In this document: positions 1 to 15,722 of the stretch, one piece after another
Layout of the letters: each line of letters begins with the position of its first letter
Numbering within the stretch: the stretch's first letter is position 1
Origin: Candidatus Staskawiczbacteria bacterium RIFOXYB1_FULL_37_44
GTDB taxonomy: Bacteria > Patescibacteriota > Minisyncoccia > Minisyncoccales > Staskawiczbacteraceae
Assembly (NCBI GenBank): GCA_001822065.1
Contig: MHPJ01000009.1
Span: 38,663 to 83,342, forward strand
Reading direction: 5' to 3'
DNA: 44,680 nucleotides
Translations under genes and position numbers: made by a program
Notes under the pieces: model-generated
Database searches by the model: none
Seen by the model: the letters and a program-made list of their open reading frames with translations, nothing else
Told to the model about the DNA's origin: nothing

Positions 1-1689
1 GGTTCTGATGGATGGAGTCCATGTCCGCCCTGTGAAGACAAAGTTTGTCCCGATGGCAGTACTGTAGATTGCACCAAAAACTGTCTGCCGTGTACAAAAA
101 CTTGTCCCAATGGCGCAGTTGTTGATTGTGACTTAACTTGTCCAAACTGCCCCAACCCATGCCCTGATGGAAGTTGCAACACAACCTGTCCGCCTTGCCA
201 AACTAAATCTTGTCCTGACGGAAGCGAAGTTTGTGATAATATTATATGTCCGCCCTGCTCTGAAACTTGCGAAGACGGCAGTAAAGTGCCGTGCGGTAAA
301 GACTGTCCGCCTTGCATTATAGATTGCGGAGAAGGCAAAACAGTCAGTTGCGGAGAGGAATGTCCTGCGCCTCCTCCCTCTGATAAAAATCATTGCAATG
401 AATATGGGAAATGTGTTGCAGGAAAAGGAAAAATAAATTGTTCAAAGCCCGAAGATTGCGAAAGCAGCTGTAAAATCAATTTCCAGTGCAAACCCGGCGG
501 CGGGGGAGCTGTATGTTCTGAAAACACAGATTGTTTGCTTGAAGGTAAAAAATGCGTTTTAAATAATGGAGTAAAACAATGCAGGCCAGATAATTGCGGA
601 GGTAAAGAATGTGGCGTAGATTCTGAATGCGAAAGCCTTGAAACATTTTGCGACCGCGATTGTAAAAAGTGCGTGCCTGGCGGAGACACAGGCATTGAAT
701 GCAGCAGCGACGTTGAATGCCAATATGGATGCACTGCCAACAATCCTGCTCAGTGTGTTTTTGGCGGAGCAGGAGGAATTTGCAGTCCATATAGCAATGA
801 CTGTTCGTCCCAAGAATTAAGGTGCGTTTTAAACGACAATGGAAGCAGGCAGTGCATTAAAGATGATTGCGGAGGGGAAATTTGCAGCACAGTCGCTAAT
901 TGCAACCAGACGCCAACTTGCGACAGCAAATGCCAAAAATGCGTGCCTGGGGGAGACACCCGCATCCCGTGTTCAGATGATTCAATATGCAAAATTGTAA
1001 ACAAGCGGCCTGAAGCAAAAAATTTGAATGTTGTAAATAAGCCTTGCACGGGAAATGTTTCTTTTCAGTGGACTTATAGCGACGGTGAAAATGATCCAGA
1101 GTATTATGCCAGGCTTGAAATAGATAATAATGCGGATTTTTTGTATCCAGAATTTATTGAAGATATAAAATATACTTATCCGCCTGCTCTAAACTTGAAT
1201 CAACAATTGGTTCCGGTAAAATATAATGTAGGATATTATTGGCGCGTAATGGTTTTAGAAAGAATTGGCATTTCGGGTTCTCAAGCTTCCGAATGGACGT
1301 ATTATGATGGTCAAAGCGGCACAACAAACCCTGAACTTGCAGAAATCTATATTAAAACAGGCCATCCTGACCCTTCGCCACGGTTTACTGTTTCGCCAAA
1401 TCCGGCTGTTGTGGACACGACAGTTAATTTTAAAAATTCATCTTTATGCTATTCAGATTCCGAGTGTAATTATAAATGGTGGTTTGGAGATCCGCATACT
1501 CCGCCAGAAAGTCCAGATAGCACAAATTCCAGCGCAAGCCATTCTTATGCCGTAAAAAAGACTTATTATACTGCAACTTTGGAAGTTTGCGATGAACAGC
1601 AATGTTGTCCCGCAAGCCGAGATGTTACAATAACTCCAAAAGGATTAAAAGACCTGCCAATTTGGAAAGAAATCTCCCCATTTTGGTAA
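1..1689 (+). CDS. Cysteine-rich repeat surface/secreted protein with C-terminal PKD-like domain (5' end runs off the window)
   Basis: Frame 1 is open from nt 1 (GSDGWSPCPPCEDKVCPDGSTVDC...), so the ORF-track Met at 286 is internal. The N-terminal part has at least 6 tandem 17-19 aa units of the form CPDGSxVxCxxxCPPCxxx. Two ~60 aa Cys-rich modules follow (CVLNNGVKQCRPDNCGGKECG...CKKCVPGGDTGIEC and CVLNDNGSRQCIKDDCGGEICS...CQKCVPGGDTRIPC). The C-terminal FTVSPNPAVVDTTVNF...YKWWFGD...HSYAVKKTYYTATLEVCD fits the PKD-domain pattern. Confidence 0.75.
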   Translation, partial: GSDGWSPCPPCEDKVCPDGSTVDCTKNCLPCTKTCPNGAVVDCDLTCPNCPNPCPDGSCNTTCPPCQTKSCPDGSEVCDNIICPPCSETCEDGSKVPCGKDCPPCIIDCGEGKTVSCGEECPAPPPSDKNHCNEYGKCVAGKGKINCSKPEDCESSCKINFQCKPGGGGAVCSENTDCLLEGKKCVLNNGVKQCRPDNCGGKECGVDSECESLETFCDRDCKKCVPGGDTGIECSSDVECQYGCTANNPAQCVFGGAGGICSPYSNDCSSQELRCVLNDNGSRQCIKDDCGGEICSTVANCNQTPTCDSKCQKCVPGGDTRIPCSDDSICKIVNKRPEAKNLNVVNKPCTGNVSFQWTYSDGENDPEYYARLEIDNNADFLYPEFIEDIKYTYPPALNLNQQLVPVKYNVGYYWRVMVLERIGISGSQASEWTYYDGQSGTTNPELAEIYIKTGHPDPSPRFTVSPNPAVVDTTVNFKNSSLCYSDSECNYKWWFGDPHTPPESPDSTNSSASHSYAVKKTYYTATLEVCDEQQCCPASRDVTITPKGLKDLPIWKEISPFW

Positions 1690-1979
1690 ACTGCTTATTA
1701 GATAAAATAAAGGAAATAGAGGACGGTAAAGCAGAAAAACCCGACTTGATTATGCTCGACCTTTTACTGCCGGATATAAACGGAGATAAAATATTGGAAA
1801 AAATACGAAAGACGCCGTCAACAAAAGATATTCCTGTATTTATTTTTACAAACTACGGCGGTGAACAAATGGAAAATGAACTGGCGAAAAACTTTAATGC
1901 CGAAAAATACCTCGTCAAAACCGATTATGGCCCAAACAAACTAATGCCGATGATAAAAGAAAAACTACAACTGAAATAA
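1683..1979 (+). pseudogene. Response-regulator receiver domain lacking its N-terminal third (remnant or aberrant short form)
   Basis: KPDLIMLDLLLPDINGDKILEKIRK...IPVFIFTNYG...KYLVKTDY aligns with the intact receivers at 16049 and 25172 from the phospho-acceptor Asp onward. The beta1 (ILIVEDD) segment is absent. The reading frame (ORF track 1602..1979) overlaps the 3' end of the upstream CDS. The only start candidates are ATG 1602 inside that CDS or TTG 1683. Confidence 0.5.
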
Positions 1980-2082
1980 AGAATTTTAGAAAATCGTCTT
2001 AATCGGCGATTTTTTAATTTTTAGCGTGGGAGGGGTTCTAAAAAAGCATCAGTAGTGCTATGATTGCGCACCAACAAGAATC

Positions 2083-2111
2083 TTGACTAAATTTGATAAT
2101 AGTAGTATTAT
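2083..2111 (+). promoter_or_regulatory. Candidate sigma70-type promoter of the 12-gene operon
   Basis: TTGACT (2083-2088), 17-nt spacer, TATTAT (2106-2111). It lies 59 nt upstream of the first ATG (2170). Confidence 0.4.
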
Positions 2112-2129
2112 TGACATATAGTTAAAAAT

Positions 2130-2161
2130 GTAAAAACTGTAACGATTTCTAGAGTTTTTAC
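2130..2161 (+). promoter_or_regulatory. 9-bp inverted repeat in the operon 5' UTR (operator or translation-control hairpin)
   Basis: GTAAAAACT (2130-2138) and AGTTTTTAC (2153-2161) are perfect reverse complements with a 14-nt loop. The repeat ends 8 nt before the ATG at 2170. Confidence 0.3.
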
Positions 2162-2169
2162 ACATAATT

Positions 2170-2799
2170 ATGAGAACATCCTATATCAAAGATTGCGTGG
2201 AGACAATAATAAATATGGCCCAGGATAATAATATAAGCTCTCCGCTTAACGTTCTTGAATTATTTGCAGGGGAAGGGTCCATTTTTACTCAATATTTGGC
2301 CAAAAAATGTAATAAGGTTATTGGGTGGGAAATAAAAAATGAATTTGCCTCTGATTTCGAGAAAAATGTCCCAAATGGCCGATTTTTCTGTAAAGATACT
2401 ATAAGCCTGCTTCAACAAGAGAATTCTGATGATTTTTTAAACGATGCCAATATTATTTGCGTTGATAATCCCCTAGGAAAATATGGAGATGAATATTTCG
2501 AACATTTTAAGTTTATAAATCATATCCATAAACTTATACATAGGCCATCTATTTTAGCAATAGATATTATTAAAAAACCATATAATATTGAAGGCAATTT
2601 AGAATGGGTTGAGGAAAGAAAAAGGTTTTATAATATCGACAAAGATGAACTAGATATGGGTTATGCGTTAAATTTTTATAAAAAAATTCTAGAAAAGCAA
2701 GGATTATCCGTTGGGGATGCAAAAATTGTTTGTCGGGAATTAGATGGAGATTTGGATTATTTTTATATGATAATTTGTGTAGTTGATAAAGCAAAATGA
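2170..2799 (+). CDS. Class I SAM-dependent methyltransferase, RsmD-like layout with degenerate motif IV
   Basis: Motif I VLELFAGEGS, then an acidic residue after beta2 (GWEIKN), then ANIICVDNPLGKY where DPPY/NPPY would sit in RsmD-type N-methyltransferases. Confidence 0.55.
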   Translation: MRTSYIKDCVETIINMAQDNNISSPLNVLELFAGEGSIFTQYLAKKCNKVIGWEIKNEFASDFEKNVPNGRFFCKDTISLLQQENSDDFLNDANIICVDNPLGKYGDEYFEHFKFINHIHKLIHRPSILAIDIIKKPYNIEGNLEWVEERKRFYNIDKDELDMGYALNFYKKILEKQGLSVGDAKIVCRELDGDLDYFYMIICVVDKAK

Positions 2800-2806
2800 T
2801 AAAATT

Positions 2807-3454
2807 ATGAAAGTAGCAATTAGCCAACCAGAACATTTTCCATATTTGGGATACTTTGAAAAAATGGCAGTATGCGATATTTTTGTAATTCTTGATAATG
2901 TCCAATTTTCTGGTCCTAGAAGCTGGCAAAACAGGAATAGATTTATAAATAAGAGTGGCGAGTGGCAGTGGTTCACCGTGCCCGTAGCTAAAAACTCTTA
3001 CTTTGAAAAAATAAATGATGTTAAAGTTGCACCTGATTTAGGTTGGAGAAATAAATTGATCAAAACTTTATCTTTAAATTTTCCAGGTAATCCTAAATTT
3101 GATTATGAAAAAATATATAACAGCGGTAAACTGGTGGACATTAATATGGAATCAATTAATTTGTGTCGAAATATTTTAGAAATTAACACTCCTATGATAA
3201 AAAGTTCTGAAATTCCCGTTATTGGGATAAAGGCAGAATTGATCTATAATATATGCAAATACCTTAAAGCTGACATTTATATTTCTGGCCAGGGGGCAAA
3301 GGACTATCTGAAAGATGCAAAATTTAAAGATATAGAAATAAAATTTATAGAGCCTAAAGTAAAAACACTAGAATCAACGATTGTTTTAATAAGCAATGAT
3401 GATAAATTGAAGGAAGCTAAGGAAATAATAAAAAAATTGCGTAACAATGAATAA
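2807..3454 (+). CDS. WbqC-like family protein
   Basis: MKVAISQPEHFPYLGYFEKMAVCDIFVILDNVQFSGPRSWQNRNRF...WFTVPV matches the characteristic WbqC N-terminus (MQPyfFPyiGYF...DdVqf...wqNRNrI). I chose the ATG at 2807 over the ORF-track ATG at 2783, which overlaps the previous gene. Confidence 0.75.
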   Translation: MKVAISQPEHFPYLGYFEKMAVCDIFVILDNVQFSGPRSWQNRNRFINKSGEWQWFTVPVAKNSYFEKINDVKVAPDLGWRNKLIKTLSLNFPGNPKFDYEKIYNSGKLVDINMESINLCRNILEINTPMIKSSEIPVIGIKAELIYNICKYLKADIYISGQGAKDYLKDAKFKDIEIKFIEPKVKTLESTIVLISNDDKLKEAKEIIKKLRNNE

Positions 3455-4244
3455 TTATAATAAAATTATAATTGGCGATATAGAATTTACAGCCTTTGAA
3501 GCCGGAGAATTTAGAATGGGCGCGCTCGGCGGTGATAAATACGCAAATATATTAGAGAAAAATCGCAATACAAAAATTGAAGATTTTTATTTACAGTCCA
3601 CACCAGTTACAGTTGGACAATATTTTTCTTTTTTAAAGGATACTGGTTATGACAGTAATTATCAAATTGAAATTTGGGATGGAGATGATTGGGTTAAAGG
3701 GCCTCATTTTTTAGAAATTAATGGAAAGGGCAATGATTATCCTGTCGTAGGAGTTTCTTTTATTGATGCAGAAAATTACATTGATTGGCTATCAAAAAAG
3801 TATGGAAAAAAATTTAGACTTCCCACAGAGGCCGAATTTGAATACGCTGCCAAAAGTTATTGTAAATGTAAGTCTGAATGTCGGTATGCAAATAAAGCTC
3901 AGGAGTTAAAAATAGTTAGAAATGAAGGAGAAATGCCAGCAAAAGGTCCTAAAAAAATAGAGGAGACCGTAAAAACTGATTCTGGTTTGTATGCAATGCA
4001 CGGAGCGATATGGCAATGGTGCAATGATTGGTTTTTCTATTACGACGAAAGAGACGTTGAAAATCCAAAAGGCCCGAAAGGAGAACCTTTATATGCTCCA
4101 TGGAAAGGGGAAAAATGGTCGCCTGGCAAGACTATCAGGGGCGGATCGTTTTCCTATCCGTTTTATTACGCACGCTGTTCTGACAGACATTATTCAAAAA
4201 TAGAGGATAGAAACTATAATGTTGGATTCAGATTATGTATTTGA
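3447..4244 (+). CDS. FGE-sulfatase (SUMF1/EgtB C-terminal) family protein lacking the FGE catalytic cysteine pair
   Basis: Family hallmarks are present: TPVTVGQYFSFL, YPVVGVSFIDAENYIDWLSKKYGKKFRLPTEAEFEYAA, MHGAIWQWCNDWF and RGGSF...NVGFRLC. The CxxxxC segment of true formylglycine-generating enzymes is replaced by SYPF. Confidence 0.8.
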   Translation: MNNYNKIIIGDIEFTAFEAGEFRMGALGGDKYANILEKNRNTKIEDFYLQSTPVTVGQYFSFLKDTGYDSNYQIEIWDGDDWVKGPHFLEINGKGNDYPVVGVSFIDAENYIDWLSKKYGKKFRLPTEAEFEYAAKSYCKCKSECRYANKAQELKIVRNEGEMPAKGPKKIEETVKTDSGLYAMHGAIWQWCNDWFFYYDERDVENPKGPKGEPLYAPWKGEKWSPGKTIRGGSFSYPFYYARCSDRHYSKIEDRNYNVGFRLCI

Positions 4245-4275
4245 CAAATAAAAATTAACAAATTAAAAAAACTTT

Positions 4276-5268
4276 ATGCCATCATTATACGAAGAATATA
4301 GTCCATGGAAAGGAGCTCATTTTATGGATAGATTGGCCGCCATCAAGAAGGGTGGTAAATGTGCCCCTGTGAGTTTGCAAATATCTTTGACTAATAGATG
4401 TTGCGCAAAATGCTATTATTGCTATGTGGAAAATAGTAATAAATTTAAAGTAGATATTGATACAGAAAAACTTTTTAAAGTACTTGAGGAGGCTAAAGAA
4501 ATGGGAGTGAAAGCGATAGAAATAACCGGCGGCGGGGAACCTCTAGTTCATCCCGATGCGTGGAAGATTATTTCTAAAATAAATGAACTTGGTCTTGATT
4601 TAGGATTGATTACTAACGGAATCATGCTTGATCCGGAAAAATTAGGTAAAGCAACATGGGTAAGAATAAGCCTTGATTCATTTAATCCTGCAACATACAA
4701 AAAGATCAAAGGCGTTAATATGCCTGATATGAAGCTGATAGGGAAAATGTGTAAAAATAAAAATGTAACCGTTGGAGCATCATGCGTAATTACGCCATAT
4801 AATTATAAAGAGCTTTATAGTTTTGCGAAGAAGGCTAAGGAAATGGGATTTAGTAATGTTTGTTTCAAGCCCGTTGAAGTTGAAAATAGAAAAGTATTGA
4901 ATCGCTTTGAAAAAATTGTAAAAGAGCAGATGGATAAAGCGATAAAACTAACGGATAATAATTTTAAAGTATTTTCTTTGGAATTAAGAAGAAATGATAA
5001 CACGGAAGCAAAACCGTTTCCGCTATGCATACAACAGCATTTAGCCGCTTTTATTTGGTCTAATGGAGATATCTATTCATGCTGCTCTCTTCAGGGAAAT
5101 AAAAATATGGTCGTAGGGAACATTTATAAAGGATCATTTAAAGATCAATGGTTTTCAAGGAAAATAATTGGAATAAAAGATTGCAAGATAGAGTGCTTTT
5201 TTGCCGGGAAAAATTCTTTTCTAAATTATTTGGTCGGGGATAATCCAAAACATGTAAATTTTATGTAA
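4276..5268 (+). CDS. Radical SAM enzyme with C-terminal twitch/partial-SPASM Cys motif
   Basis: CX3CX2C in LTNRCCAKCYYCYV, and a GGGEPL SAM-binding motif. The C-terminal CIQQHLAAFIWSNGDIYSC fits CX9-15GX4C and is followed by DCKIEC. Confidence 0.85.
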   Translation: MPSLYEEYSPWKGAHFMDRLAAIKKGGKCAPVSLQISLTNRCCAKCYYCYVENSNKFKVDIDTEKLFKVLEEAKEMGVKAIEITGGGEPLVHPDAWKIISKINELGLDLGLITNGIMLDPEKLGKATWVRISLDSFNPATYKKIKGVNMPDMKLIGKMCKNKNVTVGASCVITPYNYKELYSFAKKAKEMGFSNVCFKPVEVENRKVLNRFEKIVKEQMDKAIKLTDNNFKVFSLELRRNDNTEAKPFPLCIQQHLAAFIWSNGDIYSCCSLQGNKNMVVGNIYKGSFKDQWFSRKIIGIKDCKIECFFAGKNSFLNYLVGDNPKHVNFM

Positions 5269-5269
5269 T

Positions 5270-5974
5270 ATGAAAAAAGAAATTTTAAATAAAAAACCAG
5301 TTTTATTGGCTGTAATGGCGCACCCGGATGACGCAGAATTAAAATGTTATGGAACATTATGCAAATATTCAGAGATGGGCTTTGATTGCGTTTTATTGAT
5401 TATCTGCAGCGGTGAAAATGGAATATCCTTGAATGATAAAAAAAATCTGAATGTTAAAAGTATCCCAAAAAATGTCAGACTAGAAGAAACTATAACGGCG
5501 TTTAAAAATACCAGCGTGCATATTGATACTTTAAATTTTGATGATGGCAATATTTTTTTCGGCAGAAAATTAATAGAAGTAATAGAGCAAAAAATGAGGG
5601 AATATAAGCCGGAAATAGTTATAGCTCAATATGGGGATAGTTTGGGGGTAGACCATCAAGATCATGGTAATGCTGGAAGGGCAACAGTAAACTGTGCCAC
5701 AAGGTTAGATTTTGTTAAAAAAATATTACTTTGTGAGCCGCTTATGACACTCAGATCAGAATTTACGCCGAATTATTTTATAGATATTACTAAATATTTT
5801 CCTAAAAAAATTAAAGCGCTTGCTAGCCATAAGAGTCAGGAGGGCAGGTATTATCTTGAGGAAGAATATCATAATACTAAGGCGGATTTTTATGCGACAT
5901 CTGTCAGTTATAACAAAGCAAGGGAAGGAAATAAATATGAAGCATTTAAGGTGATTTATCAACTAGACGATTAA
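5270..5974 (+). CDS. PIG-L/LmbE family N-acetylglucosaminyl deacetylase
   Basis: VLLAVMAHPDDAELKCYGTL (AHPDD motif) and VDHQDHGNAG (HxDH zinc motif). Confidence 0.85.
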   Translation: MKKEILNKKPVLLAVMAHPDDAELKCYGTLCKYSEMGFDCVLLIICSGENGISLNDKKNLNVKSIPKNVRLEETITAFKNTSVHIDTLNFDDGNIFFGRKLIEVIEQKMREYKPEIVIAQYGDSLGVDHQDHGNAGRATVNCATRLDFVKKILLCEPLMTLRSEFTPNYFIDITKYFPKKIKALASHKSQEGRYYLEEEYHNTKADFYATSVSYNKAREGNKYEAFKVIYQLDD

Positions 5975-5976
5975 AT

Positions 5977-7200
5977 ATGGTCACACAGCAAGAAGGCAAA
6001 CAAATTAAAATATATTTTACTGGGGACATACATTCGAATATTCCTTATTCTATTGATTTGGTTGAAAAAATGTTTGATTTTAAAAAGGATAAATCATCGG
6101 TGTTGATTGATGCTGGAGATTTTTTCCAGGGGTCGCCGTTCTTTAATATTTTTGGAGGAAATCCGGAAAAGAAGATTTATAAGGAGTTATATGACATATC
6201 CATTCCCGGAAACCACGGATTCAAAATTGCAAAAAGCCTTAGAAATAAAGCTAATATTGTAAATGCCAATATTTACATGGGTGATGAGCCAGTTTTTCGA
6301 CAATTCCAAATATTAAAAAGGCAGGGAATGAAAATTGGTTTTGTGGGAATAATTTCGAAAGAAGCTTTTGACGCGATAGAAATGAAAGAAAGAAAAGGTC
6401 TGCAATTTAAAGATCCAATTCTGGTTTTTGAATCACTTGTCCCAAAATTACGATCAAAAGTAGATGCTGTGATATTGGTAAGCCACTCTGGTGTTGAATA
6501 TGATAAAAAGATATCGAGAGAAATCAAGGGTGTAGATGTCATTATAAGCAGTCATTGCCATTCTTCGTTTAAAAAAAATGATAAGTTGAATACAAAAATG
6601 ATAAAAGCACCGGAAATGGGGATGGGATTTGGTGAAATAAATATCGATAATAAATTTGCCATAGGGTTAAAAATTTATAAAATAAACAATAAATCGAAAT
6701 TATTTAATAAAAAAAATTTATTATTTTTCAATCGATACCTTAAAAAATACTACCAAGGAATGTCTCCGGTTGTTCTGTTAGTAGATTCAAATTTTTCTAA
6801 TAAATATGATAACCGTAAAGCTTTATGCAAATATATTTCTGGACGTGTCGGAAAATATTTTAATTCCGATATATGCGTCATTAATTATTTTTGCCTAAGA
6901 GATGTTTTTAAACAAGGGAATGTAACCAAAGAAGATGTTTATAGAATAGCGCCACTGGAAACAAAATTGGTTAAATTCGCTACTGATATAAAGGAATTTA
7001 ATGAAATAATTTCGGGAATAAGGAGAGAGACAAAGTCTTCATTGTGCATGTATAAAAATATTAATGATGGGAAGCATTTACAAATCATAACAACAGAATA
7101 TTTATTCAATAATTATTTTAGAGATTGCTTAAAGGATAAAAAGTATAAACAAGTTATCGATTTAGTTGAATTTATTTCTAAATACTTATTTAAAAAATGA
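5977..7200 (+). CDS. Calcineurin-like metallophosphoesterase, UshA/5'-nucleotidase-type
   Basis: The ordered motifs are YFTGDIHS (GDxH), DAGDFFQGS (GDxxQG), IPGNHGF (GNH), VSHSG and SSHCH. The C-terminal half is long and poorly conserved. Confidence 0.7.
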   Translation: MVTQQEGKQIKIYFTGDIHSNIPYSIDLVEKMFDFKKDKSSVLIDAGDFFQGSPFFNIFGGNPEKKIYKELYDISIPGNHGFKIAKSLRNKANIVNANIYMGDEPVFRQFQILKRQGMKIGFVGIISKEAFDAIEMKERKGLQFKDPILVFESLVPKLRSKVDAVILVSHSGVEYDKKISREIKGVDVIISSHCHSSFKKNDKLNTKMIKAPEMGMGFGEINIDNKFAIGLKIYKINNKSKLFNKKNLLFFNRYLKKYYQGMSPVVLLVDSNFSNKYDNRKALCKYISGRVGKYFNSDICVINYFCLRDVFKQGNVTKEDVYRIAPLETKLVKFATDIKEFNEIISGIRRETKSSLCMYKNINDGKHLQIITTEYLFNNYFRDCLKDKKYKQVIDLVEFISKYLFKK

Positions 7201-7721
7201 TTTTAACAGGAGATTACATTTTTAAAGAGTTATTAAAGGGGAATATTAGTATTTACCCTTTTAAGCGTTCGCAAATTAATCCGAATAGCTATAATTATAG
7301 GCTTGGAAAAACTATCAAAGTATTTGATAAATTTGTTAATGGAAAAAGTGTTTTTAAAAAAGTTGTGATCCCGGAATCGGGTTACTTGCTTGAGCCCGGT
7401 AAAATGTACTTAGGTAACACATATGAATTTATCGGCAGTAAAAAGTATGCGATGTCATTAATAGGGCGCAGTTCAATGGGCAGGCTTGGTCTTTTTTTAC
7501 AGGTTTCTGCTAATCTTGGTCATACCACATCATATCATAAATGGACGCTTGAACTTGTAGCATTAAAGCCAATAAAAATTTATCCGAAAATGATTATTGG
7601 ACAGATATCTTTTTGGACAAATTTTGGCAGAATTTATAAATATGGCGGTAGGTATGCAAAGATAAATAAACCACAAGAATCTTTTATTAATATAAACATA
7701 CATGATTTTAACAGGGTATAA
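7197..7721 (+). CDS. dCTP deaminase/dUTPase-fold protein, paralog A (Glu and RSSxxR kept, IDxG motif lost)
   Basis: MILTGDYIFKEL...INPNSYNYRLG and IGRSSMGRLGLF...SANLGHTTSYHKWTLELVA...IGQISFW align to Dcd (GRSSLARLGL...HRIDPGWSGCIVLEF). ATGA overlap with the upstream gene. Confidence 0.7.
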   Translation: MILTGDYIFKELLKGNISIYPFKRSQINPNSYNYRLGKTIKVFDKFVNGKSVFKKVVIPESGYLLEPGKMYLGNTYEFIGSKKYAMSLIGRSSMGRLGLFLQVSANLGHTTSYHKWTLELVALKPIKIYPKMIIGQISFWTNFGRIYKYGGRYAKINKPQESFININIHDFNRV

Positions 7722-8232
7722 AATTATCAAAGAGGTTAAAGGCGGTAAAATTAAAATTACTCCTTTTGATCATAATAGAATTACAACAAACTCCTATGAT
7801 TTGAGGCTTGGGAGCAAGCTTATTAGGTATACATCGAAAACTCTTGATCCTAAAATTAAGCCCGATTTTAAAATTATGGATATACCAAAGAGCGGAATGA
7901 TAATGCAGGCGGGGGATTTTTTATTGGGAGAGACAGAAGAGATGGTGGGTAGCGATTCTTATGTGCCTATAATACATGCAAAATCAGGAACAGCTCGCAT
8001 GGGATTATTCGTGCACGTAACAGCCGATTTAATTGATATAGGGTATTATGGAAAGTTTACTTTGCAACTTTTTGCGACATTGCCGGTTAAAATATATCCT
8101 TATATGCTTATAGCTCAAGTAAGCTTTTGGCAACCTAAGGGAAAGATAGTTCTATACAAGGGGAAATATCAAAATAGCGACGGGCCAAAGCCGTCAATGT
8201 GTTACAAAGATTTCGGCAAAATAAATAAATGA
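7702..8232 (+). CDS. dCTP deaminase/dUTPase-fold protein, paralog B (IDxG kept, catalytic Glu replaced by Gln, RSS replaced by KSG)
   Basis: MILTGYKIIKEV...TTNSYDLRLG and HAKSGTARMGLFVHVTADLIDIGYYGKFTLQLFA...IAQVSFW. It overlaps paralog A by 20 nt and the next gene by ATGA. Confidence 0.7.
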   Translation: MILTGYKIIKEVKGGKIKITPFDHNRITTNSYDLRLGSKLIRYTSKTLDPKIKPDFKIMDIPKSGMIMQAGDFLLGETEEMVGSDSYVPIIHAKSGTARMGLFVHVTADLIDIGYYGKFTLQLFATLPVKIYPYMLIAQVSFWQPKGKIVLYKGKYQNSDGPKPSMCYKDFGKINK

Positions 8233-9323
8233 AAATATTAACAGGAATAGATTTACCATTTGCCCCGCTTAGCGGAAGTTTTACGCTTTGCGATGATTTA
8301 TATGGCAATATAAATGCACAAGATAGTGTTAAATTTTTATCATTACATTCAAATGCTGGGAAAAAATGGTCGAAAATCAAAGAAGTAGATTTATTGAATA
8401 TCAAGAAGGAAAAAAATACTAATGGGTATGCTAAATATGTTGATAAAATACATTCCTCGATTGAAAAACAAATAAATACTTTTAAACCCGATATAATACA
8501 TATTCAGCATTTTTGCTTTGGTATGGCGGCGGCTTTTAGTGAAATAGATTTGCCAAAGATCGCCTTTTGTCACGGGACTGATGTTGAATTTGCCATTAAG
8601 AACGAAATCCACAGGAAGACTATTAAAAAAGTATTGGAATCATCGGAGAAAGTTGTATTTCCAACAAAAAGCATGTTTTATGATTATAAAAAGCTTTTTC
8701 CTAACATAAAGATAAATCCGGTCATAATACCGTGGGGTATCTCGGATGAAATTTTTAAAATCAACAGATCTAGAACGATTTGGCATAAAAATAAATGCAA
8801 TTTGTTGTATGCTGGGCGTTTGAGTAAAAATAAAGGGGTTGATACAATTATAAAGTCGATGAAATTTTTAGATAAGAGATTTGTTTTAACTATCATCGGT
8901 GACGGAGATCAAAAAGATGCTTTGATCAAATTGGTAAAAGAATACGGGTTATCTTTAAGAGTAAAATTTTTAAAATTTCAACCCAGGAAGGAGCTTTGGA
9001 AGCTTTTTAATAATTATGACATAATGATTATATCCACTAAAATTATTGAAGCTTTTTGCTTGACAGCTATAGAGGGCCAAGCACACGGTTTGCCTGTAAT
9101 TCATTCAGATATCGGAGGAACGAAAGATGTTATTGGATTATCAGCACTTAGATTTAGATCGGGAAATTGTTTAGATTTATCGGAAAAGATTAAATCTTTG
9201 GCATTTGATTTCAAGAAAATGAATCAGTATTCAAAGATTGGTTTTAAGAATGCCAAAAAATATAAGATATCTCAAACAAAAAGGAAGATTTGGGATATTT
9301 CACGTAAAGTAATTAAAAAATAA
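8229..9323 (+). CDS. GT4-family (GT-B) glycosyltransferase
   Basis: LLYAGRLSKNKGVD, and an EX7E motif in EAFCLTAIEGQAHGLPVIHSDIGG. Confidence 0.8.
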   Translation: MKILTGIDLPFAPLSGSFTLCDDLYGNINAQDSVKFLSLHSNAGKKWSKIKEVDLLNIKKEKNTNGYAKYVDKIHSSIEKQINTFKPDIIHIQHFCFGMAAAFSEIDLPKIAFCHGTDVEFAIKNEIHRKTIKKVLESSEKVVFPTKSMFYDYKKLFPNIKINPVIIPWGISDEIFKINRSRTIWHKNKCNLLYAGRLSKNKGVDTIIKSMKFLDKRFVLTIIGDGDQKDALIKLVKEYGLSLRVKFLKFQPRKELWKLFNNYDIMIISTKIIEAFCLTAIEGQAHGLPVIHSDIGGTKDVIGLSALRFRSGNCLDLSEKIKSLAFDFKKMNQYSKIGFKNAKKYKISQTKRKIWDISRKVIKK

Positions 9324-9328
9324 AAAAT

Positions 9329-10090
9329 ATGACAGATTTTATTATTCTCGCTGCAGGGAAAGGCACTAGATTGAAAACGGAAACATCTAAAGCTTTAATC
9401 AAAGTCCTCGGGATTCCTATGATACATTATACCGTCGATTTAGCTGAATCGACTGGAATATGTAGTAATATTTTTGTCGTAACATCAAACGTTAATCGCG
9501 AAGATATCGAAAAAGAATTATCGGGGGAGAAATGCTATTTTATTATACAGAAAGAACAACTTGGGACAGGAGATGCCGTGAGGTCTGTTATTGATAACAA
9601 TGCAAATTTAAACGATAATGTTCTTGTATTGTTAGTGGATCATCCTTTAATACCTTTAAATGCGATATTAAAGTTAAATGATGTACATATTAAGGGCGAT
9701 TCACCATTAAGTATGGTGACGGCTTGTGTCCCTAATTATGAAGGAATATATGCTGGTTTTTATCATGATGGGAGAATAAAACGAGATGAGAATGGAAATA
9801 TATTGGGAATAATCGAGCCGACGGAGGCGACAGAATATGAAATGAAAATAAAAGAAATAAATACATCCCTTTATATGTTCAATAGAGATTGGCTTATTGA
9901 AAATATGTCAAAGATTAAAATTAACGAGAAAAAGGGTGAATATTATTTAACAGATCTCGTAAAGCTGGCGGTTGATCAAGGCGTTAAAATAGGATCGGTT
10001 CAGATAGATGCAAAAGATAGTGCAGGAATAAATACTCAAAAAGATTTAGAAACTGTCGAGTCTTTTTTAAAGGAAAAAAATCATGAATAA
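9329..10090 (+). CDS. Sugar-1-phosphate nucleotidyltransferase resembling the GlmU N-terminal domain (no acetyltransferase domain)
   Basis: ILAAGKGTRLKTETSKALIKVLGIPMI, QKEQLGTGDAV and NTSLYMF. At 253 aa it covers only the pyrophosphorylase domain. Confidence 0.75.
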   Translation: MTDFIILAAGKGTRLKTETSKALIKVLGIPMIHYTVDLAESTGICSNIFVVTSNVNREDIEKELSGEKCYFIIQKEQLGTGDAVRSVIDNNANLNDNVLVLLVDHPLIPLNAILKLNDVHIKGDSPLSMVTACVPNYEGIYAGFYHDGRIKRDENGNILGIIEPTEATEYEMKIKEINTSLYMFNRDWLIENMSKIKINEKKGEYYLTDLVKLAVDQGVKIGSVQIDAKDSAGINTQKDLETVESFLKEKNHE

Positions 10091-11174
10091 GACTATAATA
10101 TTTACCGGTGGGGGGACGGCAGGCCATGTTACTCCTAACTTAGAAATAATTCCATTTTTTATTAACAATGGGTGGAATGTTTTCTATGTTGGATCAAAAT
10201 ACGGTATGGAAAAAGAGATTGTAACTAAATCAGATGTTAGAATAAAATTTTTACCCATACACGCTGGCAAATTACGCAGGTATTTTTCATTACAAAACGT
10301 TGTAGATATATTTTTGATTGGACTAGGCATAATTGAAGCATTTATTATAATAAAAAAATATAAACCCGCTATCATATTCTCTAAGGGTGGGTTTGTATCT
10401 TTTCCAGTTGTTTTTGCGGCTTGGTTGAATATGGTTCCTGTGCTAATACATGAATCTGATGTTACTCCGGGGTTGTCGAATAAACTTTCAGGTTTTTTTG
10501 CTTCAAAAATATTTTCTACATTCTCTGAAACAAGTAAATATACAAATAACAGCAAATTAGAATATATCGGACCAATAATACGCAGTGGTTTTAAAAATGC
10601 CAACTATAAAAAAGGATTTGAATACTGTGGCTTTAATAAAAATATACCAGTAATCTTGGTTATGGGCGGTAGTCTCGGTTCGGAAAACATAAACAAAGCG
10701 ATAAGGAGAGATTTAAATAAACTAATAAATAATTTTCAAATAGTTCATATTTGCGGAAAGAGAAATGTCGATAAAAATATAAAATTTGATAATTATAAGC
10801 AGTTTGAATATATCAATGATCAATTTCCTGATGTTTTAGCAATGTCGAAATTGGTTGTCGCTAGAGCTGGCTCAAATTCAATATTTGAATTTTTATTTAT
10901 GAAGAAGCCGATGATATTAATTCCACTACCGCCTAAATCAAGCCGAGGAGATCAGATAATGAACGCAAAGATATTTAAGGAAAAAGGTTATTGCGAGGTT
11001 ATTAATGATGAAGATTTAGAAAATGTTTCATCGGATAATGTTATAAGAGTAGCTTACAAAAATAAGGATTATTATATAAAGAATATGCAGAATGTAAATT
11101 TTTCAGATAATGCAAAGAAAGTTTATGAATTTATTACAAAGAAATTGGCGAATAAGTGTAAATTGAATAAATAA
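10083..11174 (+). CDS. murG: MurG, UDP-GlcNAc:lipid I GlcNAc transferase
   Basis: IIFTGGGTAGHVTPNL, GKLRRYFSLQNVVD, FSKGGFVSFPVV, VPVLIHESDVTPGLSNK, VARAGSNSIFE and SSRGDQIMNA closely follow streptococcal-type MurG. Confidence 0.85.
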   Translation: MNKTIIFTGGGTAGHVTPNLEIIPFFINNGWNVFYVGSKYGMEKEIVTKSDVRIKFLPIHAGKLRRYFSLQNVVDIFLIGLGIIEAFIIIKKYKPAIIFSKGGFVSFPVVFAAWLNMVPVLIHESDVTPGLSNKLSGFFASKIFSTFSETSKYTNNSKLEYIGPIIRSGFKNANYKKGFEYCGFNKNIPVILVMGGSLGSENINKAIRRDLNKLINNFQIVHICGKRNVDKNIKFDNYKQFEYINDQFPDVLAMSKLVVARAGSNSIFEFLFMKKPMILIPLPPKSSRGDQIMNAKIFKEKGYCEVINDEDLENVSSDNVIRVAYKNKDYYIKNMQNVNFSDNAKKVYEFITKKLANKCKLNK

Positions 11175-11177
11175 TTT

Positions 11178-11663
11178 ATGATTATTTTTATCAATGGTTC
11201 TATAAATTCCGGAAAGACCACAGTTGCTAAAATTTTATTTAAAGAACTACCCAATTTTGTTTTGGTGGAAATTGATGCGTTTCATGAAATGATAAATTGG
11301 ATGCCGATAAGTCAAGCTGTTCCGATTAACCTTGAGAACGCAGTTTTTGCAATTAAAAATTTTGCAAGAAAAGGGATTAACTCAATAGTCCCATATCCAT
11401 TGTCCCAAAAAAATTATGATTACATGATGGGCGAGCTTAAAGCTGTTAATACTAAAATTTACGTTTTTACATTATCTCCAAAATTTGATAAAGCACTTAC
11501 AAATCGAGGAGAGAGGAAACTTACCAATGAAGAAAAAGACCGAATTAAATATCATTATGAAATCGGTATTCATGCGCCAAATTTTGGAGAAATTATTGAT
11601 AATTCCGAACAAAGCCCGGAAGAAACCGCAAAAGTAATTTTAGATAAAATAAAAATCGCATAA
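11178..11663 (+). CDS. Small P-loop kinase (AAA_33 / chloramphenicol-phosphotransferase-like)
   Basis: Walker A in IIFINGSINSGKTTVAKIL. 161 aa. Last gene of the operon. Confidence 0.55.
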   Translation: MIIFINGSINSGKTTVAKILFKELPNFVLVEIDAFHEMINWMPISQAVPINLENAVFAIKNFARKGINSIVPYPLSQKNYDYMMGELKAVNTKIYVFTLSPKFDKALTNRGERKLTNEEKDRIKYHYEIGIHAPNFGEIIDNSEQSPEETAKVILDKIKIA

Positions 11664-11729
11664 GAAAAGCGTATAAACTGTTTAAGGGGGTATTTTCTCA
11701 TGGAAGTTAATATTAGTTTATAGAAAAGT

Positions 11730-11759
11730 TTGACAAGTTTGGGTATGTTAGTGTATAAT
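11730..11759 (+). promoter_or_regulatory. Strong sigma70-type promoter of the GC-rich gene
   Basis: TTGACA (11730-11735), 18-nt spacer, TATAAT (11754-11759). A GGAGGAG Shine-Dalgarno lies 4-5 nt before the ATG at 11808. Confidence 0.55.
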
Positions 11760-11807
11760 AAAAGACGATGAGTTGGACATTGAAAATTATAACCCTGGAG
11801 GAGTCCA

Positions 11808-12809
11808 ATGAACAGATCAGTCGCAAACGCGCAGCCGATTTCATTGGTTCTCTCCAGAAAGAGAATCAAGAAAAAAGTTGTGGCAAAAAAGACGGTTGGA
11901 GAGTTCTTTAACTTTCACATCCGCCTTCTGTTGATCGAGCTTTTCGGCTTGATTTTCAATCACGACTGGATATTTTGGCTGATAGGATCAGCCAACAGGA
12001 AGCTCGGACTGATAAAGTCTGTTTTTCTTGTATATCCAGCCACCGAGGAGTACGAAAGAGCGTACACCTATAAGAAAAGGGCAAAGAGAATTGAATGGAG
12101 CCCTTGGCTTGTGGGTTTGTTCTGGCAAAACGGAAAAGTTGGCGTAAAATTCGCCATTTCTTCAAGCAACAGTCAATTTGTAGATCCGGGCAATAAGGAA
12201 AAACTCCGGAGCGTTGCCGAAAGGATGGAGAAAATCAGGCAACTTTTTCGCGCCGAGCATAAAACTTTTGCCGGCATTCTTCCCGGGGTGTTGCTTGCCA
12301 ATAGAATGGTGAGAAAAACTCCGGAAGCTGATGTAACGGTTGAAGTTGTGTGCCAGGCAATTGGCAAAGTAAAGTCGCTTGAAGGATTAGGCGATGATAC
12401 GCCAATTATTGTCCTTGGCGGGAGAGGATTTATAGGACGACGAGTTGTTTCCTCTCTGCCAAAGAACACTGCTTATTGTGTGGACATCGCAGGAAATAAT
12501 GGTCAATATGCTTGGCCGTCTCATTTGCAGGGCAGGCCCGTGTTGCTCGTCAACATAAGCTTGAACTCTGCATTGGGGCAATATGTCCATCTGCTTTGGC
12601 CCGAGGTTGTGATTCTCAACGAAGTTTACCCGGAGCCATCGCAGGAGTTAGTTGAACGATTAGAGGCTGTTGGCTCTCGCTGCTGGCATGTTGCGGGAGT
12701 TAAGGCAGGGGCTTTGCCTTCATTTCCCGGCGGTTATCAAGGGGGGATTCCTTGTTGTGCCGCATGGCAATCCGATGAGATGGAGGTTTTGCTCAAAAAG
12801 ATCGTTTAG
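11808..12809 (+). CDS. GC-anomalous NAD(P)-binding Rossmann protein, possibly of the acyl-ACP-reductase/shikimate-DH-like family
   Basis: IIVLGGRGFIGRRVVSSL is a dinucleotide-binding motif. The overall order of segments loosely parallels cyanobacterial acyl-ACP reductase (tentative, from memory). Hand counts of two 60-nt lines give 50-52% GC against about 30-38% in the flanks. Confidence 0.6.
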   Translation: MNRSVANAQPISLVLSRKRIKKKVVAKKTVGEFFNFHIRLLLIELFGLIFNHDWIFWLIGSANRKLGLIKSVFLVYPATEEYERAYTYKKRAKRIEWSPWLVGLFWQNGKVGVKFAISSSNSQFVDPGNKEKLRSVAERMEKIRQLFRAEHKTFAGILPGVLLANRMVRKTPEADVTVEVVCQAIGKVKSLEGLGDDTPIIVLGGRGFIGRRVVSSLPKNTAYCVDIAGNNGQYAWPSHLQGRPVLLVNISLNSALGQYVHLLWPEVVILNEVYPEPSQELVERLEAVGSRCWHVAGVKAGALPSFPGGYQGGIPCCAAWQSDEMEVLLKKIV

Positions 12810-12847
12810 GGCTTGTCATGGATTTGACAGGCCCTTTTTTGTTTTTT
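12809..12847 (+). terminator. Rho-independent terminator
   Basis: GGGCTTGTCA (12809-12818) pairs with TGACAGGCCC (12825-12834) with one G-U pair, followed by TTTTTTGTTTTTT. Confidence 0.7.
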
Positions 12848-12872
12848 AATTTTGGTGGTATAATAAAAAAAT

Positions 12873-14903: not shown

Positions 14904-14953
14904 TTTGCTTGTTGACAGGCAAATTCACGGGTGTATCATTAAAAGAATATATT

Positions 14954-15319
14954 ATGAATAGAGAAATATACGTAATAATAGTTGAAGTTTTCTCTTTTTT
15001 GGTTGTTGGCTTGACTGTGGCTTTTGTGATTGGCTGGTATTTATCAAGAAGAGCGGAAATAAAAAGATACCGCAGGATTTTGCTTTCAAAGCGCGACGTT
15101 GAATCTTCATATAATCTTATAAAAAAAGACATAAATTCAGCGCTAAAAAATATTTCAGGAGACACTTTAAGCGAAGGCAGAATAAACGAAATAAAACATT
15201 TGCTTATGCGCGTTGATGAAAATATTGAAAAAATGAATAAATATGTGGCGCAAGGCATTAAAATAATCGGCAAATATGATATTATAAAAAAAATAGATAA
15301 ATCATTAAAAATTGACTAA
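14954..15319 (+). CDS. Small single-TM coiled-coil protein
   Basis: The ATG at 14954 gives MNREIYVIIVEVFSFLVVGLTVAFVIGWYL followed by a charged helical tail. The ORF-track start 14909 lies within 6 nt of the kinase stop and adds a non-hydrophobic leader. Confidence 0.45.
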   Translation: MNREIYVIIVEVFSFLVVGLTVAFVIGWYLSRRAEIKRYRRILLSKRDVESSYNLIKKDINSALKNISGDTLSEGRINEIKHLLMRVDENIEKMNKYVAQGIKIIGKYDIIKKIDKSLKID

Positions 15320-15698: not shown

Positions 15699-15722
15699 TT
15701 TCTAAACAAAGGGAAAAGATGC

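Follow-up and report, generated by a model that had tools for sequence, protein, structure and literature searches.

The window analysed here is a 44.7-kb stretch of DNA from Candidatus Staskawiczbacteria bacterium RIFOXYB1_FULL_37_44, and at 2170-11663 it carries twelve tightly packed open reading frames (ORFs) on the plus strand. The gene cluster to which they belong is a real conserved unit beyond chance. Ten of the genes recur in other genomes, namely those for a methyltransferase-like (MT-like) protein, a WbqC-family protein, an FGE-fold protein, a radical S-adenosylmethionine (SAM) enzyme, a PIG-L deacetylase, a phosphoesterase, two Dcd-fold proteins (DCD1 and DCD2), a GT4 glycosyltransferase and a MurG paralog (GT28). 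Judging by these families and the company that they keep, this would be an accessory biosynthetic cluster of the amino-sugar or nucleoside type, and its product is probably a glucosamine compound decorated with an amino acid and built on a pyrimidine nucleotide. Our overall reading, advanced tentatively and at slightly less than an even chance, is that the twelve genes form a single operon, a mosaic of two mobile gene modules, that encodes the pathway to a soluble, amine-modified glucosamine glycoconjugate.

Evidence for the conserved unit comes from related loci, most of which were fetched through their FGE or DCD2 gene (also through WbqC), both as neighbourhoods and by scanning a single genome for each species. 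Matches to eight of the twelve window proteins occur together in Kitasatospora, Streptomyces, Asanoa, a Litoreibacter metagenome-assembled genome (MAG) and an uncultured bacterium, where TauD is a ninth component. The order phosphoesterase-TauD-DCD1-DCD2-PIG-L-WbqC-GT4-FGE-GT28 is found in Kitasatospora aureofaciens, a second Kitasatospora, Streptomyces sp. 4F14 and Asanoa iriomotensis, and a rearranged version of this actinomycete set occurs in the Litoreibacter MAG (locus L014) and the uncultured bacterium (L010). All ten recurring genes, 31-66% identical and in another order and orientation, are present in an uncultured low-GC bacterium, on two contigs from metagenomes (L178/L229). No partner genes were found around 69 control FGE-family loci. 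A preliminary description of this DNA, made from its letters alone, had proposed that recurrence of the gene order be examined; co-location in many genomes marks the cluster as a coherent unit. The mosaic origin, the exchange of TauD for radical SAM and the link to a prolyl-tRNA synthetase (ProRS) paralog and tRNAPro-like RNAs, all set out below, go beyond that description.

On sequence relationships, Module A is made up of the MT, WbqC, FGE-fold, radical SAM, PIG-L and GT28 genes, and Module B of the phosphoesterase, DCD1, DCD2, GT4 and uridylyltransferase genes. The twelve genes are as follows.

2170-2799 (+): MT-like, class I SAM-methyltransferase-like protein of 209 aa, with a VLELFAGEG SAM loop and a DNPL motif; Module A
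2783-3454 (+): WbqC-family protein (PF08889, E=8e-45); Module A
3447-4244 (+): FGE-fold protein of 265 aa, FGE domain only, with a subfamily-specific CxCxxxC motif; Module A
4276-5268 (+): radical SAM enzyme with a SPASM/twitch domain, CX3CX2C at C41/C45/C48 and C-terminal Cys residues; Module A
5270-5974 (+): PIG-L/LmbE N-deacetylase (PF02585, 69.2 against a cut-off of 28.2), with zinc motifs VMAHPDDAE and DHQDH; Module A
5977-7200 (+): UshA-like metallophosphoesterase / 5'-nucleotidase, cytoplasmic, without signal peptide; Module B
7197-7721 (+): DCD1, Dcd-fold protein, E138 (E. coli numbering) and R110 kept, D128 lost; Module B
7702-8232 (+): DCD2, Dcd-fold protein, Q at the catalytic Glu, usually K at R110, D128 kept; Module B
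8229-9323 (+): GT4 retaining glycosyltransferase with an EX7E motif, best named relative BshA; Module B
9329-10090 (+): GlmU N-terminal-type sugar-1-phosphate uridylyltransferase without acetyltransferase domain (E=2e-52 to the GlmU N-domain); Module B
10083-11174 (+): GT28, MurG paralog of the PRK12446 type; travels with Module A
11178-11663 (+): small P-loop kinase with Walker A GSINSGKT and weak matches to CPT, Gar/GrdA, nucleoside kinases and PezT

Related loci and the two modules

The cluster takes other forms outside the Actinomycetota. Bacillota-type loci (Paenibacillus macerans, Lutispora, Mesobacillus zeae, Anaerosporobacter and locus L087) carry MT-WbqC-FGE together with GT28, PIG-L and radical SAM at about 37-64% identity. 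Further genes in the Paenibacillus cluster and in L087 are those for adenylation enzymes and a carrier protein and one of the amidinotransferase type; the former cluster also has a weak BtrH_N match and a thymidylate-synthase-like gene. Burkholderia gladioli has the order APH-?-ADI-WbqC-PIG-L-TauD-GT28-PaaK-like ligase, with transposases on both sides. When the ORFs of 16 loci, called mechanically as in all fetched relatives, were clustered, GT28 was present in 14, WbqC in 13, PIG-L in 12 and TauD in 9; the count is 8 for each of phosphoesterase, Dcd pair and GT4, and 5 for MT as for radical SAM.

TauD and radical SAM never occur in the same locus. The versions with TauD belong to Kitasatospora, Streptomyces, Asanoa, Mesobacillus, Litoreibacter and Burkholderia, which are aerobes, while radical SAM is found in Lutispora, Anaerosporobacter and P. 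macerans (anaerobes or facultative anaerobes) and in the window organism. From this distribution, the two would be oxygen-dependent and oxygen-independent enzymes for one and the same step.

The window operon itself appears to be a composite. Its block phosphoesterase-DCD1-DCD2-GT4-uridylyltransferase is collinear with locus L179, at 42, 72, 77, 59 and 50% identity respectively, and also with L180, both from other uncultured low-GC bacteria; the first four of these genes are collinear in L262 and in the actinomycete clusters as well. The genes of Module A, GT28 included, share about 43-66% identity apiece with their Bacillota-type and L178 counterparts. Since the two gene sets have separate closest relatives, the window operon is best explained as Module A joined to Module B, and since the actinomycete clusters interleave both sets, the modules would work together. 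Upstream of the Module B block in L179 and L180 are a true murA and a beta-lactamase-like hydrolase gene, and ddl lies nearby in L180.

The arrangement murA paralog-phosphoesterase-Dcd-Dcd-GT4-beta-lactamase-like serine hydrolase, in which the position of the hydrolase varies, was observed in L262 (6468-12434), L179 (142-6648) and L180 (5830-11624). L262 is a linear plasmid of Streptomyces sp. NBC_01562, whose GT4 gene is absent from the PLSDB gene table and present in the DNA.

Several features indicate that the cluster is horizontally mobile. Its GC content is 31.8%, against 36.6% in the remaining window; related loci are flanked by transposase, conjugation or restriction-modification genes; and in a strain variant of the window organism (L084, 15883-17254) an insertion sequence (IS) element with an rve integrase cuts the uridylyltransferase gene after about 60 codons, at a point corresponding to window ~9329-9540. 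Given this insertion, the 3' part of the operon (uridylyltransferase, GT28 and kinase) would be dispensable or separately expressed in that strain. At the locus of the closest other relative (L177, 5000-7300) an FGE-fold protein 87% identical to that of the window lies with MT and WbqC genes that are split in several frames, beside a type ISP restriction gene; the split frames are either pseudogenes or long-read indel errors.

Could the genes have no common function, being instead unrelated housekeeping genes (dcd, murG, glmU and a nucleotidase) packed side by side in a small, single-strand-biased genome? The whole window is co-directional and tightly packed, DCD2, GT28 and the uridylyltransferase do resemble housekeeping enzymes, and beyond its nearest relatives the cluster comes without the uridylyltransferase and the kinase. 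However, chance juxtaposition is excluded by the ten-gene synteny across phyla. The non-canonical catalytic residues of the Dcd pair, the deviating GC content of the cluster and the similar identities of the Module A genes all point the same way, leaving this explanation exceedingly improbable.

Operon layout and the encoded proteins

The ORF listing and measurement of the junctions bore out the twelve ORFs and the overlaps of the preliminary description. In gene order, the junctions measure -17, -8, +31, +1, +2, -4, -20, -4, +5, -8 and +3 nt, that is, two overlaps of 4 nt, two of 8 nt and one of 20 nt; the -17 junction holds only for a TTG start of WbqC, other gene callers choosing a later ATG. 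All long ORFs of the window lie on the plus strand and its GC skew is positive throughout, so that co-direction by itself is not special. A consensus scan likewise reproduced the promoter that had been proposed upstream, the one downstream, and the absence of any terminator-like site on the plus strand within 2170-11663. The sites at the two ends of the unit are the following.

1986-2017 (+): terminator-like hairpin, its 13-bp stem having just 3 G-C pairs, with a T run behind it
2083-2111 (+): promoter-like site TTGACT-17-TATTAT (10/12 matches), upstream of the first gene
11730-11759 (+): perfect -35/-10 consensus (12/12 matches), in the 144-nt gap after the kinase gene

The hairpin probably closes an upstream response-regulator gene and is the probable 5' boundary of the unit, while the site at 11730-11759 probably starts the next unit and marks the 3' boundary of the operon. 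Promoter-like matches in this AT-rich window number 65 against 52.4 +/- 6.7 expected, barely above chance, and are evidence of little weight. With the window all on the plus strand and such matches near chance, packing and co-direction alone are no proof of an operon.

Beyond this 3' boundary is a 333-aa ORF at 11808-12809 (+), which matches nothing in Pfam, NCBIfam or PDB and contains an internal Rossmann-like motif, GGRGFIG. Next to it, one on each side, lie the region's best promoter consensus (11730-11759) and best terminator hairpin (12808-12835), and the 12-13 kb stretch that holds most of the ORF has 43.7% GC, clearly higher than the stretches beside it; the ORF is a possible separate acquisition beside the operon. 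A second GC-rich patch, at 32000-34000 (44-48% against about 35%), holds a 343-aa ORF at 32404-33435 with no family match and unrelated to the first. Further on, a PBP2-type transpeptidase gene (35361-37088) is followed by tRNA-Glu rather than by mur or fts genes.

Family profile searches reproduced the domain calls of the preliminary description for all twelve proteins, that for the MT-like protein weakly. No Pfam match to a transporter, flippase or polymerase family was obtained among the twelve, and no signal peptide or hydrophobic stretch was seen in the sequences by eye, no prediction tool having been run; a soluble product is therefore favoured.

Among the Module A proteins, the MT-like one matches its family (PF03602, E=5e-4) under the cut-off, and its DNPL motif suggests an amino-group methyltransferase. 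Orthologs 48-50% identical adjoin WbqC in Paenibacillus, Lutispora and L178.

The AlphaFold2 model of WbqC is confident (predicted local distance difference test, pLDDT, 93.8), and Foldseek found for it only weak matches to HUP / TyrRS-type class I aminoacyl-tRNA synthetase (aaRS) Rossmann folds, with template modelling (TM) scores of 0.36-0.39 and E about 0.02. PDB sequence searches with WbqC, MT and the kinase gave nothing useful. WbqC adjoins PIG-L in several lineages. Among 198 WbqC relatives in IMG/VR viral contigs, neighbourhoods were counted in the best 80 (L094-L173); in 21 of these PIG-L is no more than 6 kb away from WbqC, and in 10 an MT-like gene is. One such contig (L111, 4765-6573) has WbqC, PIG-L and MT genes among GT1/GT2 glycosyltransferases and an SDR epimerase. 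Isolated phages in INPHARED have almost no WbqC, with one weak match. Distant members of the family adjoin NTP-transferase, DegT aminotransferase or GNAT genes in polysaccharide loci. Since WbqC keeps company with PIG-L and with genes for amino-sugar polysaccharides, it would act on amino sugars, and it is a candidate for acylating the amine freed by PIG-L with an amino acid, probably taken from an aminoacyl-tRNA. As a lead only, O-antigen clusters with WbqC, such as that of E. coli O121, would carry amide-linked N-acetylglycine; the sugar chemistry is confirmed in a review.

The FGE-fold protein belongs to a tight subfamily, with scores dropping from 179 to 118 bits at its edge, and its closest solved relative is PvdO. 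In a profile alignment with the FGE of S. coelicolor, the first of the two copper-binding catalytic Cys of its C-terminal motif falls in a segment that the window subfamily is missing, and the second aligns with Pro. Scores against EgtB (64.9, cut-off 360) and OvoA (40.9, cut-off 400) are low and there is no DinB-type iron domain. Lacking both catalytic Cys and the DinB-type domain, the protein is excluded as a true FGE or as a C-S bond-forming enzyme like EgtB or OvoA; it is a candidate for a tailoring or binding role.

The radical SAM protein exceeds the cut-offs of PF04055 (68.9) and PF13186 (23.7), and its best PDB matches are PqqE, then BlsE and MoaA. Identification as a viperin-like ddhCTP synthase was dropped as unsupported, the score against NF038283 being 63.3 bits at a cut-off of 180, with MoaA, W-cofactor maturase, PqqE and BlsE as high or higher.

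This bears on a possible role of the cluster in anti-phage defence or conflict, either through depletion of dCTP or through a modified (glycosylated) nucleotide that blocks phage replication. The radical SAM protein does reach 76 bits on the PADLOC pVip models and GT4 has a weak GT4-conflict match; L178 and L177 adjoin type I and type ISP restriction systems; and in L089 a reduced version (phosphoesterase-TauD-GT4-FGE) is enclosed by CBASS, SIR2-HerA and OLD-family genes. But the viperin model is far under its cut-off, equalled or bettered by others; PADLOC otherwise gave only a weak mad2 match for MT, and neither it nor PHROGs indicated membership in a defence system, the uridylyltransferase and GT28 having been left out of the PADLOC scan. 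Any mobile accessory cluster would be expected on islands, and depletion needs far fewer than the ten or more biosynthetic enzymes seen here, two glycosyltransferases and a deacetylase among them. The defence role is thus distinctly improbable. The preliminary description had offered a pyrimidine-nucleotide-derived product or nucleotide depletion as its third reading; a nucleotide-derived product is compatible with our results, whereas simple depletion is unlikely given nine further biosynthetic enzymes.

The L089 region (509-20000) itself has a gene for an unknown 420-aa protein, then the phosphoesterase, TauD, GT4 and FGE-fold genes and a second, longer FGE-fold gene. Its neighbours, a CBASS-like set (SMODS, bacterial HORMA and AAA), SIR2-HerA-like genes and an OLD-family TOPRIM gene, form a defence-island context.

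PIG-L matches BshB1, BshB2 and Mca, each under the cut-off. GT4, the best named relative of which has been given above, is probably a UDP-GlcNAc-dependent transferase by its sequence. For the uridylyltransferase, an ortholog 50% identical stands directly after GT4 in L179, the only locus with which it is shared. No ortholog of the kinase occurs in any related locus examined, and this lineage-specific protein possibly serves in self-protection or as a nucleoside or nucleotide-sugar kinase.

Against TIGR02274 (cut-off 92.8), DCD2 scores 107.1 and DCD1 59.8. Aligned to E. coli Dcd, DCD1 proteins have the catalytic E in 85 of 91 and H, Q or N at the D128 position also in 85 of 91, while all 88 DCD2 proteins have Q at position 138 and all 88 keep D128. 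No single polypeptide of the pair combines E138, D128 and R110, and DCD2 adjoins DCD1 in 77 of 80 metagenome loci. The active sites of Dcd lie between subunits. Complementary losses in about 90 pairs, together with this adjacency, therefore suggest that DCD1 and DCD2 form an obligate heteromer. Duplication by chance of a housekeeping dcd, which the preliminary description had set against its own idea, is ruled out by a conserved, specialised pair with complementary, non-canonical active sites.

The DCD1-DCD2 tandem is far commoner than the cluster (metagenome loci L181-L258, e.g., L187:6403-12081). Most often, an S66 LD-carboxypeptidase of the MccF family (27 loci), a pyridoxal phosphate-dependent decarboxylase of the ornithine/diaminopimelate type (23) and a class I methyltransferase (53) precede DCD1-DCD2. 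AlaRS-catalytic-domain paralogs, an AsxRS-like gene, an ATP-grasp gene or DUF1826 are frequent companions of the metagenome pairs. This set looks like a second, undescribed pathway of the aminoacyl-nucleotide type. Plasmid pRetMIM1e of R. etli Mim1 (L260) has DCD1-DCD2-MT-hyp-NUDIX beside a metallophosphoesterase. Accessory contexts of at least three kinds contain the pair, and aaRS-like genes abound in two of them.

GT28 exceeds the NF009102 MurG cut-off (427 against 339) and falls below that of TIGR01133 (225.5 against 250.25). It keeps the G-loop GGxxGH, HE, GGS, E268, Q288 and N291, all invariant across eight cluster GT28s and E. coli MurG. In the latter, E268, Q288 and N291 bind the UDP-GlcNAc donor. 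Outside the Candidate Phyla Radiation, its nearest homologs are Bacillota proteins named MurG, about 50-55% identical. Because it is present in 14 of the 16 cluster loci and on a Streptomyces plasmid, GT28 belongs to the cluster; its genomic context is this accessory cluster, the plasmid included, and not the division and cell wall (dcw) cluster.

These properties of GT28 favour a different role, the main alternative, namely the remodelling of cell-envelope precursors, in which GT28 would be a working MurG isozyme with lipid I as acceptor and the other enzymes would produce or edit a non-standard UDP-aminosugar or lipid II head group, through deacetylation of the sugar followed by N-acylation or aminoacylation of the GlcN. 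The outcome may be a modified peptidoglycan or linkage unit, resistant, for example, to lysozyme, antibiotics or phage. Besides the MurG score and motifs, murA lies beside the nearest relatives of Module B, with ddl near in L180, and a murA paralog accompanies Module B on the Streptomyces plasmid L262; Bacillota versions have GlmM-, GlmU-C- and YdjC-like genes; and no dcw-type or other murG was found within the window although a penicillin-binding protein gene is present. Peptidoglycan cross-bridges, moreover, use dedicated non-translational tRNAs through Fem transferases. The operon, however, has no flippase, MraY-like enzyme, polymerase or obvious membrane protein, and the cluster is sporadic and mobile, on plasmids and transposase-bearing islands. 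Paenibacillus and Streptomyces presumably also hold a housekeeping murG in their dcw cluster. Known wall-precursor chemistry has no step for the Dcd pair, for TauD or radical SAM or for the FGE-fold protein, and the genes like those for non-ribosomal peptide synthetases, amidinotransferase and APH in some versions resemble secondary metabolism. We consider the envelope role unlikely. A peptidoglycan or surface-glycan branch was the second reading of the preliminary description; it agrees with the MurG motifs kept by GT28, which is, however, a paralog that travels with the cluster.

The tRNAPro link and a candidate pathway

An operon of Streptomyces and Kitasatospora, proSx-GT4-WbqC-lmbE-tRNAProX-murG, encodes a ProRS paralog and tRNAs with a tRNAPro body and Ala, Thr or Asn anticodons (Schuntermann et al. 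2023, PMC10404621). Its native role was stated to be open and possibly non-translational (PMC10404621), and was still open in the 2024 literature; in this literature the operon has been treated as a mistranslation device, and the wider cluster is not described.

The published operon turns out to be the 3' part of a larger cluster. On a linear plasmid of Streptomyces sp. NBC_00239 (L259; NZ_CP108096.1, 150.0-159.4 kb), the order is MT-phosphodiesterase-TauD-DCD1-DCD2-PIG-L-WbqC-GT4-ProRSx-tRNA(AGC)-MurG. This locus shares eight window gene families by tblastn, plus an annotated MT, with TauD in place of radical SAM, so that the tRNAProX operon and the window belong to one cluster family. The place of the FGE-fold gene in K. 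aureofaciens is taken here by ProRSx and the tRNA. In K. aureofaciens, no tRNA was found in the FGE-MurG gap with Rfam (E<=10), and actinomycete clusters of the FGE type are therefore taken to be without tRNA.

Directly downstream of the tRNAProA cluster of L259, at 16425-20906, are two radical SAM genes, an LD-carboxypeptidase gene and a gene annotated "amino acid--tRNA ligase-related"; the carboxypeptidase and aaRS-like genes echo the surroundings of the stand-alone Dcd pairs.

Comparable RNAs accompany other versions. The uncultured bacterium (L010) has a ProRS paralog without editing domain (11934-13154) and a tRNA (13163-13236) with a Pro-type acceptor stem and a degenerate anticodon arm. 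In the Litoreibacter MAG (L014), a tRNA with a Pro-type acceptor stem and the anticodon UCG (16637-16710) is followed by a ProRS paralog, again without editing domain (16755-17843). The Bacillota-type L087 has the tRNA only, a tRNA-Pro(AGG) with A33 at 674-750, directly upstream of WbqC, and no ProRS paralog. All three acceptor stems are of the bacterial tRNAPro type (C/U-G-G/A-G-G-U-G ... A73), and these RNAs would extend the tRNAProX family beyond the Actinomycetota.

Most versions thus encode some means of acyl or aminoacyl activation, whether a ProRS paralog with tRNA (L010, L014 and L259), an adenylation enzyme with carrier protein (Paenibacillus and L087) or a PaaK-like ligase (Burkholderia). 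WbqC is the only protein of unassigned chemistry beside the ProRS/tRNA pair in the published minimal operon. Given both observations, we propose that WbqC transfers an aminoacyl group onto the glucosamine amine.

Another use of such tRNAs would be as targets, the cluster decorating a base or ribose of the tRNAPro-like RNA, of other tRNAs or of DNA. Dcd-fold, kinase and thymidylate-synthase-like enzymes may then make a hypermodified pyrimidine nucleotide, as in the pathways of T-even phages. Several versions contain tRNA genes, the MT-like protein has a weak resemblance to rRNA/DNA amino-methyltransferases, the Paenibacillus version has a ThyA-like gene, and WbqC, PIG-L and MT are found in viral contigs. 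Yet no tRNA belongs to the window version, those viral WbqC, PIG-L and MT genes that were examined have ordinary glycan-synthesis genes for neighbours, and there is no DNA-binding protein, base-exchange enzyme or polymerase-linked component. Co-encoded ProRS paralogs imply a charged tRNA, which therefore serves as donor and not as target. Nucleic-acid modification is accordingly very improbable.

Under the biosynthetic reading, the steps could run as follows. The uridylyltransferase would provide a UDP-N-acetylhexosamine donor, and the heteromeric Dcd-fold enzyme would convert dCTP (or CTP) into a uracil nucleotide as scaffold or handle; because a Dcd pair and a nucleotidase occur together, the scaffold, or the nucleotide handle of the donor, would be a deoxy-pyrimidine nucleotide. 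GT4 might then add alpha-GlcNAc to a phosphorylated acceptor, from which the phosphoesterase would strip the phosphate (the logic of MshA and MshA2), and PIG-L would bare the 2-amine. WbqC could acylate this amine with an amino acid, probably from aminoacyl-tRNA; the donor would carry proline where the cluster encodes a ProRS paralog and tRNAPro, and would come from the cellular pool in the window organism. The MurG paralog would attach a beta-linked N-acetylhexosamine, and radical SAM (TauD in aerobes), the methyltransferase and the FGE-fold protein would tailor the product. Finally, the small kinase might protect the producer or activate an intermediate. From the enzymes combined here, the end product is most likely an aminoacyl-aminosugar metabolite of the pyrimidine nucleoside type, antibiotic- or antiviral-like.

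A bolder form of this proposal, which as a whole we hold to be somewhat unlikely, is that WbqC represents a new transferase family, dependent on aminoacyl-tRNA, whose members acylate a hexosamine at the amine left by deacetylation, with ProRSx and tRNAProX as dedicated, translation-insulated prolyl donors. The product would be a prolyl-(or aminoacyl-)glucosaminyl pyrimidine nucleoside that mimics the aminoacyl-tRNA 3' end, its nucleotide coming from the heteromeric Dcd-fold enzyme. The UCG, AGG and degenerate-loop tRNAs of the alphaproteobacterium, L087 and the uncultured bacterium may likewise be donors under this proposal, and not proteome-wide mistranslation devices.

Several observations weigh against the biosynthetic reading. 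ARAGORN and Rfam found no tRNA in 2170-11663, and neither an aaRS paralog nor an adenylation enzyme or carrier protein is encoded in the window cluster, so that any aminoacylation here would depend on housekeeping aminoacyl-tRNA. The Dcd pair, phosphoesterase and GT4 were not found within the fetched flanks of the Bacillota versions, so that a nucleotide scaffold is not universal. The resemblance of the WbqC model to the class I aaRS fold is weak, and neither cyclodipeptide synthase (CDPS) nor GNAT folds are among its top 50 matches. WbqC, the FGE-fold subfamily, the DCD pair and the PRK12446-type MurG have no known activity, and every chemical step is guilt by association. Counts of co-occurrence are biased, since the loci were gathered through FGE, WbqC or DCD2. 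Lastly, the occurrence of Module B with a MurA paralog, near ddl in L180, and the full set of MurG motifs in GT28 fit a role in cell-wall precursors.

Significance and comparison with known systems

The ten-gene accessory cluster spans four named phyla (Actinomycetota, Bacillota, Alpha- and Betaproteobacteria) and several uncultured lineages, and it includes four families without assigned chemistry: WbqC, the cysteine-less FGE fold, the split Dcd pair and the PRK12446-type MurG paralog. It offers a concrete, testable answer to the question, raised in 2023-2024, of what ProRSx and tRNAProX are for. Because RNAs with a tRNAPro body and assorted or degenerate anticodon loops occur in related clusters, a donor role outside translation is argued. 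DCD1/DCD2, in turn, would be a widespread two-subunit enzyme, as judged from sequence, that is annotated today as plain dcd. Cultivable carriers (Streptomyces sp. NBC_00239, K. aureofaciens, P. macerans, M. zeae and B. gladioli) make the chemistry approachable without culturing the window host.

No described pathway for this gene combination was found in the full-text literature, in agreement with the preliminary description, and PADLOC, as noted, added only generic pVip and weak mad2 matches. The nearest published system is the tRNAProX operon (PMC10404621), with which the window shares four of six elements, GT4, WbqC, PIG-L/LmbE and a MurG-like protein. The window lacks the two that define the operon, the ProRS paralog and the tRNA, and has an FGE-fold gene, radical SAM instead of TauD, a GlmU-N-type transferase and a kinase.

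Mycothiol and bacillithiol provide the best template for the order of steps. In their synthesis, a GT4 enzyme transfers GlcNAc to a (phosphorylated) acceptor, followed by a phosphatase, a PIG-L deacetylase and attachment of an amino acid to the free amine. Among named NCBIfam families, the window GT4 and PIG-L come closest to BshA, BshB1/2, MshA and Mca, yet the scores are far under the cut-offs (BshA 61.8 against 273.7, BshB1 60.4 against 182.5, MshA 51.3 against 462.5). There is no MshC, BshC or MshD homolog or cysteine-ligase family among the twelve proteins; a MurG paralog, the Dcd pair, radical SAM, MT and the FGE-fold protein are extra; and the amino acid, where the cluster indicates one, is proline rather than cysteine. 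The first reading of the preliminary description followed the same logic, and this part of it holds up, whereas the FGE fold as an EgtB/OvoA-like C-S enzyme falls with the missing DinB domain and catalytic Cys. The ligase that it found to be missing is probably WbqC.

Nucleoside and aminosugar antibiotics offer a second parallel. In their pathways, nucleotide-processing enzymes and glycosyltransferases come together with a PIG-L-type deacetylase and subsequent N-acylation, a radical SAM tailoring enzyme and tRNA-dependent aminoacylation, and the tunicamycin enzymes TunB, TunM, TunD and TunE presumably form a comparable pathway. BlsE, from the blasticidin-type pathways, is the second-best solved relative of the window radical SAM protein, a similarity that is generic (49 bits). 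The window has no CMP hydrolase, UDP-GlcA chemistry or SDR (TunA/TunF) enzyme. Aminoacylation that depends on aminoacyl-tRNA or aaRS-like enzymes is known from ascamycin (AcmF), BD-12 (Orf11) and pacidamycin (PacB) (PMC12945691). None of the known folds of tRNA-dependent transferases (GNAT/Fem, CDPS and aaRS-like) was recognised in the window, and WbqC would be a new one.

Two further comparisons are with housekeeping enzymes. GT28 is a full-length NF009102 match that keeps the motif residues of MurG, yet stays under the TIGR01133 cut-off and is only 25% identical to E. coli MurG; NF009102/PRK12446, we take it, covers the second MurG copies ("MurG2") of Bacillota. The Dcd-fold proteins share with homotrimeric Dcd (TIGR02274) the same fold and the GRSS-x-x-RLG phosphate loop, whereas in the window they form a tandem pair between which the catalytic equipment is split.

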